From Candidatus Zixiibacteriota bacterium (GTDB lineage Bacteria; Zixibacteria; MSB-5A5; GN15; FEB-12): a stretch of 64,000 bases of DNA. Each line of letters begins with the position of its first letter. Positions within the stretch are counted from its first letter, which is position 1. Position numbers and translations under genes: made by a program. The notes under the pieces were generated by a model that was not told the DNA's origin, made no database searches, and was given only the letters and a program-made list of their open reading frames with translations. This document shows, in pieces, positions 33,434-40,711 of this stretch. The DNA is taken from contig JANQPI010000042.1 of the NCBI GenBank assembly GCA_028289585.1, positions 87,337 through 151,336 of the forward strand, given 5' to 3'.

Positions 33434-34504
33434 TCAGATGCCTCGGAAAAAGCGAAGAATGTCGTTATACGTCACATACACGATGAGTCCGAGCAAGAGC
33501 ACCATACCGACCTGTTGAGCCCACAAACGGGCTTTCATCGACAGCGGGGATCCCTTGATCGCCTCGATCGCCAGAAAGATAAGATGGCCACCGTCGAGGA
33601 CCGGAATCGGCAGAATATTCAGGATTGCGAGATTCACCGACAGCAGCGCCATGAAGAAGAAGAGCGACTGCGCTCCTTTCCGGGCCTCGCGTCCGGATTG
33701 CTGGGCAATGAACAGCGGTCCGCCAATCATGCTCGATGACATCTGGCCGGTAACGAGCTTACCAAGAAATCGGACTGTTTCAGTAACAATCAGGTGCGTG
33801 GCCCCGACCCCCCGGGCGACGGCCTCACCAAAACCGTACCGTTCGTACCCGACCGGCTGCTGATTGACACCGAGAATACCAACGGTATCAACATCCCCTT
33901 CCGGGGTGAGGGCAGGTTGTGCTTTGGTGGTAATCGTGACGGTCTGACTGTCCGTGCCGCGGAGAAAGGTAACCGCAATCGGTTCCTCGACGCGCGCGTT
34001 GACGTACATGCGCAGCGAATCAAAGTTTGTGACAGGGAGACCATCGAGAGCAACAATCTGATCACCCTCCAACAAGCCGGCGTCCAACGCCGGTCCGTCG
34101 TCACTCACCGCTCCGACAACAATCCGCTCTGAATCGAAGATCGGCGTTCCGGCGAAGAGAAAGATCCCGATCAGAATGACAATGGCCAGGATGTAGTTCA
34201 TGAACGGACCGGCAAAGATGACTGCGGCGCGCGCGGGAACCGACTTGGACATGAATTCATCAGGCGCACCGGAAGCTTCTTCATCCGGGTTCTCTCCGGC
34301 CATCTTGACATAACCGCCGAGGGGAATAATGCCAATCGCGTACTCGGTGCCTCGCCACTTACGGGCAAAGATGTTCGGCGGAAAACCGACCGAAAACCGA
34401 TCGACTCGAATCCCTACCCACTTGGCGACCAGGAAGTGTCCCAACTCGTGAATAAACACGAGAATACCGAGGACGAAGATAAATGAGAGCAGCGTTGTTA
34501 CCAT
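33434..34504 (-). CDS. rseP: RIP metalloprotease RseP
   Basis: HELGH, PDZ domain, NILPIPVLDGG. Confidence 0.95.
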   Translation of the reverse strand: MVTTLLSFIFVLGILVFIHELGHFLVAKWVGIRVDRFSVGFPPNIFARKWRGTEYAIGIIPLGGYVKMAGENPDEEASGAPDEFMSKSVPARAAVIFAGPFMNYILAIVILIGIFLFAGTPIFDSERIVVGAVSDDGPALDAGLLEGDQIVALDGLPVTNFDSLRMYVNARVEEPIAVTFLRGTDSQTVTITTKAQPALTPEGDVDTVGILGVNQQPVGYERYGFGEAVARGVGATHLIVTETVRFLGKLVTGQMSSSMIGGPLFIAQQSGREARKGAQSLFFFMALLSVNLAILNILPIPVLDGGHLIFLAIEAIKGSPLSMKARLWAQQVGMVLLLGLIVYVTYNDILRFFRGI

Positions 34505-35673
34505 TTGACCTTTTCCATCCCCCTACGCGCAGTCTCGCGAGCGGTTGCATCGGCGGTCAGAATATCATCCAATGACGGATGGTCAACAAGTGTCGAGGCT
34601 TCGAGGGTCCGCTCAATAATGCGCGGAATCTCAATGAAACCGATCGACCGTTCGAGGAAGGCTGCGACCGCCGTCTCATTAGCAGCGTTGTATATGGCCG
34701 GAGCGGTACCGCCACGACGCGCGACCTCAACAGCCAGACCCAGAGCCGGGAACCGTTCCCAATCCGGAGGTTCAAACGTCAAACTGCGCAACTCGTTCCA
34801 ATCGATTCGACCATCGTCTCCGGGGACGCGATCTGGCCAAAAGAGGGCGTACCGAATCGGCAGGACCATTGTTGGTCGCGAGAGCTGCGCCACAATCGAT
34901 GAATCAACGAATTCGATCATTGAATGGATAATCGATTGCGGATGAACGACAATCTCAATCGCGTCGATCGGTACCTGGAAGAGGTTAACGGCCTCAATGA
35001 CTTCCAAACCCTTGTTCACGAGGGTCGCTGAATCGACAGTGATCTTCGGACCCATTTGCCAGGTAGGATGGGCAAGCGCCTCCTCAACAGTGATATCGGC
35101 AAACGCATCGGTTGGTAGCTGACGAAACGGACCGCCTGACGCGGTGAGCAGGATCCGGCGGATCGATTCCCGGCGTTCGCCGTTCAACACCTGCCAGAGG
35201 GCGGAGTGTTCCGAATCGATTGGAAGGATGGGTGGTTTACCGACGGCAATGGCTTCCTGAAAAAGCGGTCCACCGGCCACCAGGGATTCCTTATTCGCCA
35301 GTGCGAGCGGGATTCCAGCAGCGACCGTCGCCAGTGAAGCGCGCAGACCGGCCGCACCAACAACCGCGTTCACGACAATGTCAGCATCAGCTGCGGCAGC
35401 AAGTTCGGTTAGTCCGGACTGTCCGGATAGGATCTCGATCGAGGAGTCGTCCACCTGCGACTGAAATCGCTCGGCGGCGCCGGGGTCGACCAAGCAGACT
35501 CGCTTGGGAGAAAACTCGCGACAGATTTCGAGGAGCACTGAGACCGAAGAATACGCCGCTATGCCAGTTAAGCGAAACGCTTCGGGATGGGCCCGCAGAA
35601 CCGCCAACGTCGACCGCCCGATCGAGCCGGTCGCGCCCAGGAGAATCAGATTTCGTGTTGAGCGTGTGACCAA
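34498..35673 (-). CDS. dxr: 1-deoxy-D-xylulose-5-phosphate reductoisomerase
   Basis: LGATGSIG, LANKES, PIDSEH, HPTWQMGPKITVDSAT. Confidence 0.96.
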   Translation of the reverse strand: MVTRSTRNLILLGATGSIGRSTLAVLRAHPEAFRLTGIAAYSSVSVLLEICREFSPKRVCLVDPGAAERFQSQVDDSSIEILSGQSGLTELAAAADADIVVNAVVGAAGLRASLATVAAGIPLALANKESLVAGGPLFQEAIAVGKPPILPIDSEHSALWQVLNGERRESIRRILLTASGGPFRQLPTDAFADITVEEALAHPTWQMGPKITVDSATLVNKGLEVIEAVNLFQVPIDAIEIVVHPQSIIHSMIEFVDSSIVAQLSRPTMVLPIRYALFWPDRVPGDDGRIDWNELRSLTFEPPDWERFPALGLAVEVARRGGTAPAIYNAANETAVAAFLERSIGFIEIPRIIERTLEASTLVDHPSLDDILTADATARETARRGMEKVKW

Positions 35674-35687
35674 TACAGCGGGCCTCG

Positions 35688-35726
35688 AAAAAAGAACGGG
35701 CGGAGCCGAAGACTGACTCCGCCCGT
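35688..35726 (-). terminator. Intrinsic terminator after the cyclophilin gene
   Basis: ACGGGCGGAG/CTCCGCCCGT stem followed by TCTTTTTT. Confidence 0.75.
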
Positions 35727-35745
35727 CAGAACCTCTGTGAGTAGC

Positions 35746-36429
35746 TTACGAATCGAGCCGGTTGCCGTCGGCGTCTGAGACGTATGCCTCAATCAGCCTC
35801 ACATCCTCGGCCGGCCGGGAGATCTCCTGTCCCCCGGGCTGGGCGACCGTCGGTACGGTGGCGATCTGCTGCAGAACCTCATAGCCCTTGAGCAACTGAC
35901 CGAAGACAGTGTATTGACCGTCGAGCACGGCGGTACGCTCACGACTCAGACAGATGAAGAACTGGCAGGACGCAGAATTGGGATCCGGACCCCGCGCCAT
36001 CGAGAGCGTCCCCTCCTGATGCGGCAAATCTGAGAACTCGGCATCAAGAAGGTACCCGGCATTCCCCATCCCGGAACCCGTCGGGTCGCCCCCCTGAATC
36101 ACAAACTCAGGCAGCACACGATGAAAGATCGTATTGTCGTAGAAGCCCTTCTCGGTCAGGGAAAGGAAGGAATCAGCGTGAGCCGGCGCGACATCGCGCC
36201 AGAGCTCGAGCGTCATCAGACCGAAATTGGTACGAAGGGTAACGATGGCGTTCCCCTCATCGCGGACAGGTGTCGTACGGGCATTAGGGTCGTGGGTCAT
36301 GGGTGAATCATCCGCCACAGCTTCCGGGGTGGTCGTCTCCTCGGCCTCGGTCTGCGGCTCCTCCGAAGAACAGCCGAGGCCTACCAGGAAGCCAAGGGCG
36401 CATAAGTAAGTTATTGTCGTTCTTCGCAT
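35746..36429 (-). CDS. Cyclophilin-type peptidyl-prolyl isomerase lipoprotein
   Basis: Lipobox GLGC; FHRVLPEFVIQGGDP, SMAR, QFFI, YTVFG. Confidence 0.92.
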   Translation of the reverse strand: MRRTTITYLCALGFLVGLGCSSEEPQTEAEETTTPEAVADDSPMTHDPNARTTPVRDEGNAIVTLRTNFGLMTLELWRDVAPAHADSFLSLTEKGFYDNTIFHRVLPEFVIQGGDPTGSGMGNAGYLLDAEFSDLPHQEGTLSMARGPDPNSASCQFFICLSRERTAVLDGQYTVFGQLLKGYEVLQQIATVPTVAQPGGQEISRPAEDVRLIEAYVSDADGNRLDS

Positions 36430-36461
36430 AAGGCTCCTTCATCCGATGTTTCGCGAGCGCG

Positions 36462-36490
36462 AATATGCGCCTCCCGCGAATACCGGTCAA
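36462..36490 (-). promoter_or_regulatory. Putative sigma70 promoter of the cyclophilin gene
   Basis: TTGACC-17 nt-CATATT. Confidence 0.55.
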
Positions 36491-36536
36491 GCTTTTAGGG
36501 GACGAGGACGGGCGCTCGCGAGCCTCGATTTTATAC

Positions 36537-36564
36537 TTGGCGGATCAGTTCTTTTGTGTATAAC
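36537..36564 (+). promoter_or_regulatory. Putative promoter of the small structured transcript
   Basis: TTGGCG-16 nt-TATAAC. Confidence 0.5.
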
Positions 36565-36598
36565 TCCCGTACACTCGGAAAGGAGGTGGTCAACATAT

Positions 36599-36634
36599 AT
36601 GAGTTTTGACTGTAGTGAGGTGACTGCTAGCTAG
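36599..36634 (+). CDS. Putative 11-aa peptide MSFDCSEVTAS
   Basis: ATG preceded by GGAAAGGAGGTGGTC; TAG stop lies in a hairpin stem. Confidence 0.4.
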   Translation: MSFDCSEVTAS

Positions 36635-36691
36635 TTGCCGACCCCATCGATTTCCGTTGGGAGCGCTAGCTAAAACCCAACAGAATCACCG

Positions 36692-36725
36692 AACGAGCCC
36701 TCCTTTCCGGACGGCTCGTTTTTTT
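36692..36725 (+). terminator. Intrinsic terminator with anti-SD in its upper stem and loop
   Basis: AACGAGCC-CTCCTTTCCGGAC-GGCTCGTT-TTTTT. Confidence 0.8.
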
Positions 36726-37608
36726 ATGGCTGGTGCGGCTTGGCAATGCCCCCCGGTGCGGTCAATTCGAAGACATCGATCTGCCGTACAGTTGAATCTC
36801 CCAGCGTATCGGTGAAGACGACCAGGCCGACGGCATCCCACTGAAACTCAAACGCCGGCACCGCTGGATCGGTCAAATCGAGGAAGGCACGGTCCGGGGG
36901 ACCATAGACGGCCTCAACGTCGCGATACGGAGAGACATCCACTTGCAATGAATCCAGCGTCGGATGCACGTAGGCATTGGGGGTGTCGTACGCGGTGGCA
37001 AGGACCCCACGTACCGGTTCGGTGTCTTCGATCTGGCTGTTCGAATTGACATCCCAGACCATCACGACGAGACCTTCAGCTTGGTCGTAGAGAGCCAAGT
37101 TGTATGCACGTCCGCTCAACGGTACCGTCCCTGCCGGATTGCCCTTCCACGTCTTGACATCGGCGTACCGATCCGAAAACAGAATCAGGTCACCCTGACC
37201 GTTGTTGCCGGGGATGAGCACCGGCGCCCGGAGAACAAACGTCAGCGTATCGTCCTCGTGCGTTGCCTCAACAACCGCCTGACCGAGTGAGCCGGTGAAG
37301 GCATAGGAGAACGTCGCAACTCCGGAGACGTTGGTAACCGTATCGCTGCTGAATAGCCCGTCTCCCGAAAGCACCCGAAACGTGACACGAGCACCGGGCA
37401 CCGGATTATTGGACGCATCTCGCACGGTTACCTGTGGCGACGGTGTCAGTGTCGATTGGCCGATGCGCCCCACGATTCGTGTGGCATTGGCGGACAACGA
37501 TCCAGAGGCGGGTGGCGGATCAACCGGGTTGTCCTCAGGACAACCCGCAACTAAAAGTCCAGCGATGACTATCGAGGCAATCGATACGTATCTCAATACA
37601 ACCCCCAA
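36724..37608 (-). CDS. Lipoprotein with Big_1/Ig-like domain
   Basis: Lipobox LVAGC; VTVRDASNNPVPGARVTF; start may be a few codons downstream. Confidence 0.75.
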   Translation of the reverse strand: MGVVLRYVSIASIVIAGLLVAGCPEDNPVDPPPASGSLSANATRIVGRIGQSTLTPSPQVTVRDASNNPVPGARVTFRVLSGDGLFSSDTVTNVSGVATFSYAFTGSLGQAVVEATHEDDTLTFVLRAPVLIPGNNGQGDLILFSDRYADVKTWKGNPAGTVPLSGRAYNLALYDQAEGLVVMVWDVNSNSQIEDTEPVRGVLATAYDTPNAYVHPTLDSLQVDVSPYRDVEAVYGPPDRAFLDLTDPAVPAFEFQWDAVGLVVFTDTLGDSTVRQIDVFELTAPGGIAKPHQP

Positions 37609-38321
37609 TAACGAACCGCAGCGCCGATGTGCAGATATTGCGGTCGATCGTTTGTCGCGACAGCATTCCAGGAAACCTGTGGTGAGACCGACCAGGCGCC
37701 GCGTGGCGAACGGCCAAACACGAACTCAACACCCGCGTTCAGGTTGATCCCCGTGCTGACATAGTATTCGGACTCAAATCCGTCGAGCGTCTGAGCGAGC
37801 AAACCCACCTGTCCCCCGGCACCGAACCAGGGCGCGATCGGCGATTGAGTGGGCGACAACAGGTACCAGGCGAGGTTCAACTCCAGGTCCCAGACGTTAA
37901 AAGTCGGCACTTCGGGAACCCAGGAATAGAAGACGGTATCGCCGACCACCGGACCCGGAACGGCATAGTCTTCGAAGGAGACCGTTGAGCCATCATCAAA
38001 GCGAAACCGTCCTGCATCCGGAGTTGTAGCTCGCGTGAAGCGAATGCCGATTGAGGCCGCGAAGTTGTTACCGGTCAGGCGACCCGCAGCGAGTCCAATC
38101 GAGAAGCCATTATCCCAGACCTCATCTGCATCGAGAGCCCGGGGAAAGTTAGCGGCATCGAGAAAGTCGATAACCCCAATACGGGTGTAGTCACCAACCG
38201 GTGATGTGGCTGATCCCGATAGTTCGAAGAACGTGTACGAACGTTCCTTTCGTGTCAGGGCCGAAGCGTCGGCGACCATGGCGGCAAGCAGAACGATACA
38301 GAGAACGCGAAAGCCGGACAC
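37593..38321 (-). CDS. Outer-membrane beta-barrel protein
   Basis: Signal peptide, amphipathic strands (PWFGAGG, NAGVEF), aromatic C-terminus. Confidence 0.7.
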   Translation of the reverse strand: MSGFRVLCIVLLAAMVADASALTRKERSYTFFELSGSATSPVGDYTRIGVIDFLDAANFPRALDADEVWDNGFSIGLAAGRLTGNNFAASIGIRFTRATTPDAGRFRFDDGSTVSFEDYAVPGPVVGDTVFYSWVPEVPTFNVWDLELNLAWYLLSPTQSPIAPWFGAGGQVGLLAQTLDGFESEYYVSTGINLNAGVEFVFGRSPRGAWSVSPQVSWNAVATNDRPQYLHIGAAVRYWGLY

Positions 38322-38576: not shown

Positions 38577-39491
38577 ATGCCTAATCCTGCAATTGTCATT
38601 GTCGGTGCCGGGGCGATGGGTCAGGGACTCGCCGAGGCAATCGCGACGCAGGGATCTGAACTGTATTTGCTCGACCAGTCGACCGACAAAGCAGAGCTGG
38701 GCAAGCAGCGAATCGCAGAGTCGATTGACCGGGAGATTCGTCGCTGGGGACTGACAAAATCAGACAAGAAGGCAATCCTCGCCCGTATTCATCCGACCGC
38801 CGAATACGAGGTGCTCAAAGAGGCCGATACGGTCTTTGAGTCGATTCCTGAAAATCTTGATGCGAAACGGCGCATGCTCGCCGAAGTGGAACCGTACTGC
38901 CGGCCCGACGCTCTCATTGTCAGTACGACCGGAACACTGTCGATCACGCGGATTGCCCGCTATACGCTCCGACCGGAACGACTGGTCGGCATGCACTTCC
39001 TCAATCCGGTCTCCCAAATTCCCCTGGCCGAGGTCGTTCGCGGACGCGAAACCTCCGATTCCGCGTTCAAACGAGCGGTGGCGTTCGCCCGGTCACTCGA
39101 CAAGCAATGGATTGAAGTCAATGAATACCCGGGGTATGTAACAACCCGGATCATTGTGCCGATGATCAACGAGGCAATGCATGTCCTGATGGAGGGGGTG
39201 GCATCGGCCGAGGACATCGATAAGGCGATGAAACTCGGATTCGGCTTTCATGTCGGCCCCCTGGCACTCGCTGACATGATGGGGCTCGACGTTGTGAATC
39301 ATTGGATGAACAACCTGCTCGCCGAGCTGGCCGATCATAAGTACAACCCTGCCCCCATTCTCCGTCGCAAAGTCCTGGCCGGTGAGCTAGGCGTAAAAAC
39401 CGGACGCGGCTTTTTTGATTACGACGAACGGGGGAACCGCCAGCTGGTTACGATCCAAGATACGGATCTGGAACGTGAGGTGGTGGCGTGA
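38577..39491 (+). CDS. hbd: 3-hydroxybutyryl-CoA (3-hydroxyacyl-CoA) dehydrogenase
   Basis: GAGAMG, ESIPENLDAK, GMHFLNP, GPLALAD, LGVKTGRGFF. Confidence 0.9.
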   Translation: MPNPAIVIVGAGAMGQGLAEAIATQGSELYLLDQSTDKAELGKQRIAESIDREIRRWGLTKSDKKAILARIHPTAEYEVLKEADTVFESIPENLDAKRRMLAEVEPYCRPDALIVSTTGTLSITRIARYTLRPERLVGMHFLNPVSQIPLAEVVRGRETSDSAFKRAVAFARSLDKQWIEVNEYPGYVTTRIIVPMINEAMHVLMEGVASAEDIDKAMKLGFGFHVGPLALADMMGLDVVNHWMNNLLAELADHKYNPAPILRRKVLAGELGVKTGRGFFDYDERGNRQLVTIQDTDLEREVVA

Positions 39492-40711
39492 GAATTCTTG
39501 TTCTCAACTGTGGTTCGTCGTCCGTTAAGTACCAGTTCATCAATACGGATACCGGAAGTGCCCTTGCCAAAGGCACCGTGCAGCGTATCGCCATGGCGGG
39601 CGCGTCGATTACCCACAAGCCGACCGGTAAGGATACGGTCGTGATCGAATCAGAGCTCCTTGATCATACCGCTGCTATCGACCTGGTTGTCAAGACACTC
39701 TCTCATTCTGATCACGGAGTGATTTCATCGATGGATGAAATCGATGCGGTTGGACATCGCATCGCACATGGAGGCGAAACGTTCACCGATTCAGCACTCG
39801 TCACACCATCGATGATGACCGTCCTGCACGATTGTATCGAACTCGCGCCCCTCCACATGCCAGCCATGATTCGCGGCATCAAGGCATGTCAGCGCGTCCT
39901 CAGTGATCAGCCTCACGTATCGGTCTTTGACACGTCGTTTCACCACACGCTACCGGCGCAGGCGTACGTCTATCCGCTCCCGTATATCTTCTATGATGAG
40001 TATCGGATCCGCCGTTATGGCTTTCACGGCACGTCACACAAGTATGTCGCCCAGCGTGCCGCTCTGCTGACCGGGAAGCCGTTCGATCAATCTCGGATCA
40101 TTACCTGTCATCTCGGGAATGGTGCGTCGATCACGGCGATCAAAGACGGACAATCGATTGACACGTCGATGGGTTTCACACCGCTCGAGGGACTCATGAT
40201 GGGTACCCGTTCTGGCGACGTTGATCCGGCGATTATCCTCTACATCATGGACAAGGAGGAGCTCTCCCGGCGAGAGGGTAACTCTCTGATGAACAAACAT
40301 TCCGGTTTGGCCGGGGTCTCAGGGATCTCGGCTGACATGCGGGATGTCGTTGAGGCAATGGAATCCGGTAACGAGCGCGCCAAGCTCGCCTTCGACATCT
40401 ACTGTTACCGTCTGACCAAGTACATCGGCAGTTATGCCGCCGCCCTAGGTGGTCTTGATATTCTCGTCTTTACCGCCGGCGTAGGTGAGAACTCACCTCA
40501 AGCCCGGACACGGGTCTGCTCGACCCTGGGCTTTCTTGGTGTGGAACTCGACGAATCGCTGAATCAGAAAACGCGAGCGGTCGAGGCCGAGATTTCATCG
40601 GCGGCCGCGACCGTACCGACCTGCGTCATTCCTACCAATGAGGAGTTGGTGATCGCTCAGGAAACCGAGCGAGTGGTCAACAGCGAGCAGCCGCAGACGG
40701 CCGTTCGATAG
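39488..40711 (+). CDS. ackA: Acetate kinase
   Basis: LNCGSSS, GHRIAHGG, YGFHGTSH, CHLGNGAS, FTAGVGEN, PTNEE. Confidence 0.95.
   Translation: MRILVLNCGSSSVKYQFINTDTGSALAKGTVQRIAMAGASITHKPTGKDTVVIESELLDHTAAIDLVVKTLSHSDHGVISSMDEIDAVGHRIAHGGETFTDSALVTPSMMTVLHDCIELAPLHMPAMIRGIKACQRVLSDQPHVSVFDTSFHHTLPAQAYVYPLPYIFYDEYRIRRYGFHGTSHKYVAQRAALLTGKPFDQSRIITCHLGNGASITAIKDGQSIDTSMGFTPLEGLMMGTRSGDVDPAIILYIMDKEELSRREGNSLMNKHSGLAGVSGISADMRDVVEAMESGNERAKLAFDIYCYRLTKYIGSYAAALGGLDILVFTAGVGENSPQARTRVCSTLGFLGVELDESLNQKTRAVEAEISSAAATVPTCVIPTNEELVIAQETERVVNSEQPQTAVR

Follow-up and report, generated by a model that had tools for sequence, protein, structure and literature searches.

What does selection preserve in a small transcript that joins an extended Shine-Dalgarno (SD) sequence to an open reading frame (ORF) of only 11 codons? 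The question is raised by a plus-strand element in a 64,000-nucleotide (nt) stretch of contig JANQPI010000042.1 from a Candidatus Zixiibacteriota bacterium (assembly GCA_028289585.1), the whole of which is referred to here as the window. An initial annotation had described the element as an unannotated, ribosome-interacting small RNA or mini-peptide messenger RNA (mRNA), with its own promoter, an anti-16S motif, a hairpin that buries the stop codon and a terminator complementary to the 5' region of the same transcript. The analysis presented here places the element in the Rfam family Ms_IGR-5 (RF02471) and indicates that it is, on balance, a translated, ribosome-engaging small RNA in which selection acts on the RNA and on its being translated, not on the peptide. 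The description of a small ribosome-engaging transcript with a mini-ORF is thereby supported, and its novelty is lost to the family match.

Assignment to the Ms_IGR-5 family

An Infernal scan of the whole window matched RF02471 with a score of 52 bits against the curated cut-off of 45 (E 9.8e-09), and a permissive scan of positions 36300-36900 (601 nt) returned the same family at E 9.2e-11, with no second family matched. The match extends over model positions 1-184 of 184 without truncation, the terminator stem of the element being shorter than that of the consensus. A whole-genome Rfam scan returns the same match, which is the sole Rfam match in the window, and the element is present as a single copy in its own genome; 14 control genomes scanned with RF02471 gave no match. 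The signature motifs AAGGAGGUGGUC, GUGAGGUG.CUG and AAUYC..CAG.CACC occur in the element in the order found in RF02471, and the mini-ORF stops three codons past GAG-GUG as in the family, a property derived from 179 members that stands outside the Rfam definition. The family name carries the host designation "Actinobacteria", which does not describe the present host; this label marks the place of first sighting and is no structural criterion. Membership in Ms_IGR-5 is thus close to certain. By the terms of the initial annotation itself, assignment to an existing Rfam family would argue against novelty, and since RF02471 is such a family, the element does not constitute a new class.

The first report of Ms_IGR-5, as listed in PMC4109619, came from work on M. 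smegmatis (Li et al., RNA 19:74). According to the passages that name the family, a small transcript was validated by RNA-seq in S. lividans (PMC8079986), the S. avermitilis Ms_IGR-5 is a transcription unit with a mapped start and end (PMC8780764), and ribosome-protected reads fall on MS_IGR-5 homologues of M. abscessus and M. smegmatis (PMC4974804). The passages naming Ms_IGR-5 in these three papers state no function. A literature search for systematic M. tuberculosis small-RNA names around Rv0812 and Rv0813c found none, and a search on extended SD sequences and short ORFs, with supplementary ribosome-profiling (Ribo-seq) tables outside its reach, returned nothing specific.

Distribution across genomes

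The RF02471 model was run on 41 genomes belonging to the same family and order as the window; it matched 22 of them at E <= 0.001 and 14 above the cut-off. From the 21 distinct order-level copies, an alignment (A2) and a new model (R1) were built, and R1 was run on an even sample of 151 genomes from the window's phylum (FCB group, Zixibacteria-like). It matched 55 of these. By family, the matches comprise 31 of 54 genomes in the window's own family (f1, counted without G000), 11 of 15 in f4, 5 of 10 in f3, 4 of 11 in f7, 2 of 2 in f15 and 1 of 8 in f16, with none in each of 13 further families of the sample. In addition, one genome per species was searched with a pattern built from the two best-conserved motifs, which was found on at least 120 contigs. 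Among the matches listed, 102 belong to Actinomycetota and 13 to Acidobacteriota by record title, while one each is labelled Heliobacteriaceae, Zixibacteria, Gemmatimonadota, Ignavibacteriales and "bacterium". Ms_IGR-5 therefore occurs in five or more phylum-level groups, Actinobacteria being only one of them.

Several loci illustrate the history of individual copies. In one genome of the window's family, L190 (G082:C4:86658-86942) is an additional copy with promoter, SD and mini-ORF intact; the conserved 3' half that should follow the stop codon is missing, which marks L190 as a truncated duplicate. L033 (Heliobacteriaceae-labelled) and L078 (Blastocatellia-labelled) are closely alike, encoding MSSYHSEVAAT and MSIRHSEVAAT, respectively, and both carrying CAATCC..CAGCTTACC; their likeness across phylum labels could reflect transfer or a binning error. 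As for a mobile origin, blastn searches against 72,556 plasmid records and 50,697 phage records gave no match.

A stand-alone gene with its own promoter and terminator

As read from the sequence, the element is a stand-alone small-RNA gene of approximately 155 nt with a putative sigma-70-type promoter and a putative, constitutive intrinsic terminator of its own. The promoter TTGGCG-16-TATAAC lies where the initial annotation had placed it, and its layout recurs in 60 distinct upstream regions of the window's phylum, which share a T-run, TTG and a TAT-type hexamer at a fixed distance from the SD, followed after about 5-7 nt by TACAC. Because this arrangement is kept at a fixed distance, the RNA probably starts about 8 nt before the SD. 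Consensus scanners flagged neither the promoter nor the terminator: the promoter scan demands T at position 6 of the -10 hexamer, where the element has C, and the loop of the terminator exceeds 8 nt. The terminator helix shows compensatory changes on both sides in 11 of its 13 pairs among relatives.

The combination of an SD, a short ORF, hairpins and a terminator is the classical layout of an attenuator, and the element might accordingly be regarded as a cis-acting leader or a ribosome-dependent attenuator of a neighbouring gene. The genomic context speaks against such a role. The next downstream gene in the window is convergent, as the initial annotation had recognised in setting this possibility aside. 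Of the first 22 own-order loci, 9 have a downstream ORF in the same orientation as the element and 13 have a convergent one; the neighbours belong to unrelated gene families that differ between genera. The cyclophilin-dxr pair found beside the element in the window recurs in 4 of 52 loci, and in one Pfam-annotated mycobacterial locus the element lies between genes for a class IV aminotransferase and a THAP4-like haem-binding protein. Moreover, in the consensus the 3' strand of the closing helix P3 abuts the terminator stem without overlapping it, and no conserved helix overlaps that stem, so that no antiterminator is apparent. As the neighbouring genes are not conserved, the leader or attenuator interpretation is discarded as extremely improbable.

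Consensus structure and covariation

The 163-nt RNA folds with a free energy of -54.1 kcal/mol (z = -3.22). An RNAalifold consensus was computed on a MAFFT alignment (A1) that had not been fitted to any structure. It comprises a free SD, the helix P3 (GGU.RCUG/CAGN...ACC) closing the domain, the hairpin P2, whose 5' strand includes the stop codon, and the terminator. Paired cells make up 93.8% of A1 compared with 82.3% in shuffled alignments, none of 500 shuffles reaches any of five measures, and controls with slid partners pair in only 31-47% of cells. Changes on both sides were found in 17 of the 31 consensus pairs; the initial annotation had asked for covariation and for conservation of the reading frame, and both are present. 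The covariation is concentrated in P2 and the terminator. The hairpin TAGCTAG/CTAGCTA, which buries the stop codon as described initially, corresponds to the lower stem of P2, where 97% of cells pair and 5 of the 8 pairs have undergone changes in both strands.

P3 is nearly constant within the order and varies at greater distance. In family f7 (L189, L191-L193) its CUG/CAG is replaced by CCG/CGG, a U:A to C:G exchange, and across phyla the middle pair occurs as A:U, G:C, G:U or C:G, with some G-A mismatches. The internal SD-like GAGGTGA noted initially within the ORF is indeed present there, and because P3 is conserved, this second SD-like motif is normally expected to be paired with the anti-SD-like 3' strand (..UCACC). 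Equivalents of a small predicted hairpin, P1, of the form GGTC(C)...(G)GAC, are found in relatives and in the Rfam consensus. Within the order the sequence AAATCCCAACAG shows little or no change, and its family-wide form is AAUYC...CAG.CACC.

The Shine-Dalgarno segment

The 3' tail of the host's own 16S rRNA reads ...GGATCACCTCCTTTCT. The SD segment pairs with 15 consecutive bases of this tail through 13 Watson-Crick and two G:U pairs; the extended complement noted initially is thus real, with two G:U pairs in place of the one counted at the time. The 3.15-Mb genome has 5465 GGAGG sites, counting both strands, and only the 16S antisense (16) exceeds this run of 15; the next-best sites are four with 14. 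All 21 order-level relatives carry the segment unchanged.

The own 16S rRNA gene (L143, G000:C18:1733-6277) is situated on the same contig about 83 kb upstream, outside the window. Its helix 34/35 region, GTGAGGTGTTGGGTTAAGTCCCGCAAC, has GTGAGGTG and GTTGGG in common with the small RNA and resembles the arrangement GUGAGGUG...GUUGGGUU...UAAGU...CCCAAC of some relatives. Mimicry of this 16S region was considered and rejected as a chance similarity, since a collinear-match test did not rise above shuffled sequences (p > 0.05 in 27 of 32 elements; p 0.997 for the window); the best collinear chains mostly fell elsewhere in 16S.

A conserved reading frame without a conserved peptide

The reading frame was assessed in 192 loci, which reduce to 179 distinct elements. 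The presence of an in-frame ATG, GTG or TTG 5-14 nt past GGAGG and an ORF of at least 9 codons was established for 171 of the 179, and in 7 others, all from the window's phylum, ATT stands in frame at the start position; in the single remaining element (L188) the start is absent and the stop displaced. The other two frames pass the same test in 20 and 0 of the 179. Start codons among the 171 are TTG (90), ATG (66) and GTG (15), and stop codons are TAG (156), TAA (10) and TGA (5). The stop lies exactly three codons past GAG-GUG in all 171, and the frame is kept through ORF lengths of 10, 11, 12, 13, 15, 17 and 18 codons.

The ATT starts occur in L006, L018, L160, L163, L176, L181 and L182, where they share the context GGTC(T/C)TATT and lie at position 14 from the start of AAGGAGG. 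Elsewhere, ATT is known as the start codon of infC, in which it takes part in autoregulation by initiation factor 3 (IF3).

These observations bear on the possibility that the RNA is not translated at all. An untranslated small RNA could use its very strong SD to park a 30S subunit as protection against 5' exonucleases or to titrate ribosomes, and could act through a 3' single-stranded segment, the ORF being incidental. The nearness of the SD to the predicted 5' end (about 8 nt) and its rank as the genome's best complement of the 16S tail would suit such a role, as would a peptide that is unconserved as an amino acid sequence and starts that are mostly weak, ATT included. On the other hand, a start codon restricted to one of three frames through seven length classes is difficult to reconcile with an incidental ORF, and mycobacterial homologues carry ribosome footprints according to the passage concerned in PMC4974804. 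The mini-ORF is therefore judged likely to be translated, and an untranslated small RNA is considered unlikely.

A second possibility is that the transcript is an mRNA for a functional 11-residue micropeptide, the structure merely tuning its synthesis. The ORF with its start and stop is kept across at least five phylum-level groups, and the residues E-V-(A/T) are invariant or nearly so, both of which would be expected of a functional product. The pattern of nucleotide change is of a different kind. The invariant residues coincide with fixed nucleotides located in P3 or in the SD-like motif, GAG-GUG showing a single synonymous variant in 179 elements (GTA for GTG). Where codons do vary, it is the first position that changes, and the residues are exchanged radically: the codon before GAG-GUG is NGU, encoding Cys, Ser, Arg or Gly, and the third codon ahead of it, in Actinobacteria and the other phyla besides the window's own, is NGG, encoding Arg, Trp or Gly. 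The N-terminal half of the peptide and its last two residues are free to vary, the latter changing in step with covariation in the P2 stem, and the product ranges from 10 to 18 residues in length. Because the variable positions are not wobble positions, selection appears to act on the RNA and on the act of translation and not on the peptide, and a micropeptide function is regarded as decidedly improbable.

Pairings specific to the order or to the genome

Within the window's order, the segment GUUGGG in the apical part of P2 has two potential partners. In 19 of 21 order-level copies it can pair both with a variable upstream partner (4.5-7.5 pair units, loop of 5-13 nt) and with the invariant downstream AAAUCCCAACAG (6-8 pair units). 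In L013 and L021 the downstream motif has become AUCCAC, and the partner has become GUGGAU or UGGAU. The inner hairpin CCCATCG/CGTTGGG of the initial annotation is consequently a feasible pairing and only one of two that compete for GUUGGG. A family-wide pseudoknot or alternative helix between the interior of P2 and the 3' motif was also considered; it was rejected, support for it being confined to the window's order.

A further pairing involves the terminator loop, which holds an exact 11-nt complement of the SD region. None of 200 shuffles of the downstream sequence reaches the same length, so the self-antisense stretch emphasised in the initial annotation is real; it is, nevertheless, no key design of the family. 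Complements of at least 8 nt to the SD region were found in 9 of 139 distinct elements, at varying places, and only that of L137 is comparable to the stretch in the window, while the own-order relatives have no anti-SD stretch in the terminator. The terminator-loop anti-SD is thus peculiar to the window genome. The finished RNA of this genome is predicted to hide its own SD, either in the terminator loop or in the apical UUUCC of P2; the fold with UUUCC as the partner has a minimum free energy (MFE) of -51.3 kcal/mol, as against -45.4 kcal/mol with the SD forced free.

Anti-SD stretches downstream of the ORF were observed in two actinobacterial members, namely CCACCTCCTTTCC (13 nt) in L137, from a Streptosporangiaceae contig, and CCTCCTTTC (9 nt) in L062, from a Phycicoccus contig. 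Their sites differ from the loop used in the window, which suggests that sequestration of the SD has been gained repeatedly and independently.

The capacity of the SD to pair with the terminator loop recalls a type I toxin-like mRNA silenced by 5'-3' fold-back, a resemblance to which the initial annotation had drawn attention while remarking that the peptide is not hydrophobic. That remark is upheld: MSFDCSEVTAS is a polar, acidic and hydrophilic product of only 11 residues. The fold-back exists in the window sequence and is missing from the terminators of relatives, so that it is no family trait. As the peptide is both short and hydrophilic, the element is not taken to be a type I toxin, and the probability of this explanation is practically negligible.

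Proposed mechanism and significance

A mechanism can be outlined for a translated, ribosome-engaging small RNA. The SD, lying close to the predicted 5' end, would capture a 30S subunit through the whole free 16S tail, and the bound subunit would melt P1, which shows the start codon in its loop. The ribosome would then translate the 11 codons and terminate at the UAG buried in the base of P2; in its passage it would unzip P3, in which GAGGUGACUG is paired with CAG..CACC, together with the lower stem of P2. Ribosome occupancy may stabilise the RNA in the manner of a 5' STAB-SD element and may toggle it between two folds. A ribosome halted at the UAG would cover the upstream partner of GUUGGG and free this segment for AAAUCCCAACAG, an arrangement that suggests a translation-gated switch. 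Since GUUGGG has two alternative partners, translation could decide whether the invariant 3' segment is free or sequestered. Such a two-state switch is put forward as a tentative possibility. In the window genome alone, once the RNA is complete, the 11-nt anti-SD of the terminator loop could pair back onto its SD, which would probably dampen ribosome loading.

A number of observations weigh against the reading of the element as a translated RNA with a regulatory fold. Of the 179 elements, 119 were found by a pattern that demanded the SD and GTGAGGTGNCTG, though not the start, frame or stop, so that conservation of the SD and of GTGAGGTGNCTG in those 119 is a matter of ascertainment; counts over the 179 also overstate independent support, as many of the elements are close kin. 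The element was not found in 96 of the 151 phylum genomes, including own-family genomes that are 97-100% complete, which implies that it is dispensable or often lost. Single-sequence folds disagree on the partner of the SD, which is either the terminator loop or the apical UUUCC of P2 (the fold with the latter gives a mean unpaired SD probability of 0.24), and predicted SD accessibility among relatives is noisy, ranging from 0.08 to 0.78. Support for the 3'-motif complement falls away outside the window's order: the best complement surpassed shuffles at p <= 0.05 in no more than 18 of 121 elements, the median p being 0.4, and these 18 are nearly all from the order itself. Finally, a search for targets gave 43 complements of 10-13 nt to the 3' segment, one of which is the element's own antisense strand; the 42 other genomic places show no enrichment at gene starts and correspond to the chance level.

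A more far-reaching conjecture, and a rather unlikely one, is that Ms_IGR-5 is an old, multi-phylum, translation-gated riboregulator, in which each ribosome passage flips the fold and hides or exposes the AAUYC..CAG.CACC arm. If this were true, the RNA would report the availability of ribosomes, initiation factors or release factors to a partner, and the use of ATT and TTG as starts, together with a UAG stop in nearly all members, would belong to the sensing. Apart from such conjecture, what was already known is the Rfam family. The new observations are its occurrence in further phyla, the rank of the SD within the genome, the ATT starts, the patchy single-copy spread without fixed neighbours, the codon evidence against a functional peptide, the order-specific GUUGGG arrangement and the restriction of the terminator-loop anti-SD to the window genome, which shows that it is no trait of the family. 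A widespread small RNA whose conserved property is that of being translated poses a tractable question, as cultivable carriers such as Streptomyces and M. smegmatis are available.

Genomic setting of the element

The features of the element and its immediate neighbours are listed in Table 1; all those recorded in the initial annotation are present at the coordinates given there. The surroundings are ordinary housekeeping genes. On the minus strand, positions 33434-36429 encode an M50 site-2 protease with a PDZ domain, DXP reductoisomerase and the cyclophilin, the protease and reductoisomerase ORFs overlapping by 7 nt. On the plus strand, positions 38577-40711 encode 3-hydroxyacyl-CoA dehydrogenase and acetate kinase, with an ORF overlap of 4 nt. 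Beside the gene for the Ig-like-domain protein lies a 242-residue ORF (37593-38321, minus strand) without a Pfam match at E <= 0.001. The sole minus-strand promoter-like site in the consensus scan (36490 to 36462) is located upstream of the element and directed toward the cyclophilin gene.

Table 1. Coordinates of the Ms_IGR-5 element, its parts and its flanking genes, numbered from the first position of the window
Feature	Position	Strand	Basis
Ms_IGR-5 element, extent of the Rfam RF02471 match	36571-36727	+	Infernal
Putative promoter: -35 TTGGCG 36537-36542, 16-nt spacer, -10 TATAAC 36559-36564, preceded by a T-rich stretch	36537-36564	+	Sequence reading
TACAC, probable 5' end of the RNA as judged from the distance to -10	36570-36574	+	Near-invariant in alignments A1 and A2
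Extended SD GGAAAGGAGGTGGTC, complement of the entire free 16S 3' tail	36577-36591	+	Comparison with 16S tail
Predicted hairpin P1: GTCAA 36589-36593 / TTGAC 36606-36610, start codon in loop	36589-36610	+	MFE fold
Mini-ORF, 11 codons plus TAG, MSFDCSEVTAS; ATG 36599, TAG 36632-36634	36599-36634	+	Translation
Second SD-like motif GAGGTGACTG, including GAGGTGA 36617-36623	36617-36626	+	Invariant in order-level alignment
GGTGACTG, 5' strand of P3	36619-36626	+	Helix with 36681-36690; cross-phylum compensatory changes
Hairpin P2, lower stem TAGCTAG 36628-36634 / CTAGCTA 36666-36672, stop codon inside	36628-36672	+	Covariation
Apical part of P2: CCCATCG 36643-36649, G segment GTTGGG 36656-36661	36643-36661	+	Sequence reading
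Conserved 3' segment AAACCCAACAGAATCACC	36673-36690	+	CCCAAC 36676-36681 complements GTTGGG
3' strand of P3: CAG 36681-36683 and CACC 36687-36690	36681-36690	+	Consensus fold, covariation
Intrinsic terminator: stem-loop 36691-36721, T-run to 36726	36691-36726	+	Folds, covariation
Terminator-loop stretch CCTCCTTTCCG, exact 11-nt complement of CGGAAAGGAGG (36576-36586)	36699-36709	+	Sequence reading
Cyclophilin-type isomerase gene with N-terminal extension, divergent neighbour	35746-36429	-	
Ig-like-domain protein gene, convergent neighbour downstream	36724-37608	-	

Comparison with known systems

The type I toxin mRNAs hok and tisB undergo 5'-3' fold-back, and in the window genome alone the 3' segment of the element can likewise sequester the SD of the full-length RNA. 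Unlike hok and tisB, the element encodes no hydrophobic toxin, and its fold-back is not shared by the family.

STAB-SD sequences, reportedly described by Agaisse and Lereclus in 1996 in the cryIIIA leader, are said to be 5' mRNA stabilisers of Gram-positive bacteria. A STAB-SD belongs to the leader of a long mRNA and is not known to be followed by a start codon or to be used for starting translation. The element resembles it in having an SD-like sequence near the probable 5' end, with extended complementarity to 16S rRNA that could hold a protective 30S subunit, and differs in that a conserved start codon and mini-ORF follow the SD and the RNA ends at about 155 nt.

Small RNAs that are also translated include SR1, RNAIII and SgrS. 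Another case, reported in PMC6614838, is rnTrpL/peTrpL of Sinorhizobium meliloti, a small terminated RNA with a short translated ORF. The element shares with rnTrpL its small size, its terminator and its short ORF, and each may have a further activity at the RNA level. The two differ in that rnTrpL arises by release from an attenuator that precedes trp genes, whereas the element has no linked operon and its peptide is unconserved.

With respect to the Ms_IGR-5 RNAs of Actinobacteria, the element in the window differs in details of size and pairing. Its ORF has 11 codons in contrast to mostly 12, and its P2 is short, whereas many Actinobacteria have long P2 insertions; the GUUGGG/CCCAAC pairing is kept only in the window's order, and an anti-SD at this site of the terminator loop occurs only in the window genome. 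In both, the same motifs follow one another in the same order, with the very strong SD, the start codon in the loop of a small hairpin, the stop-bearing hairpin and the terminator, and both are stand-alone intergenic genes.

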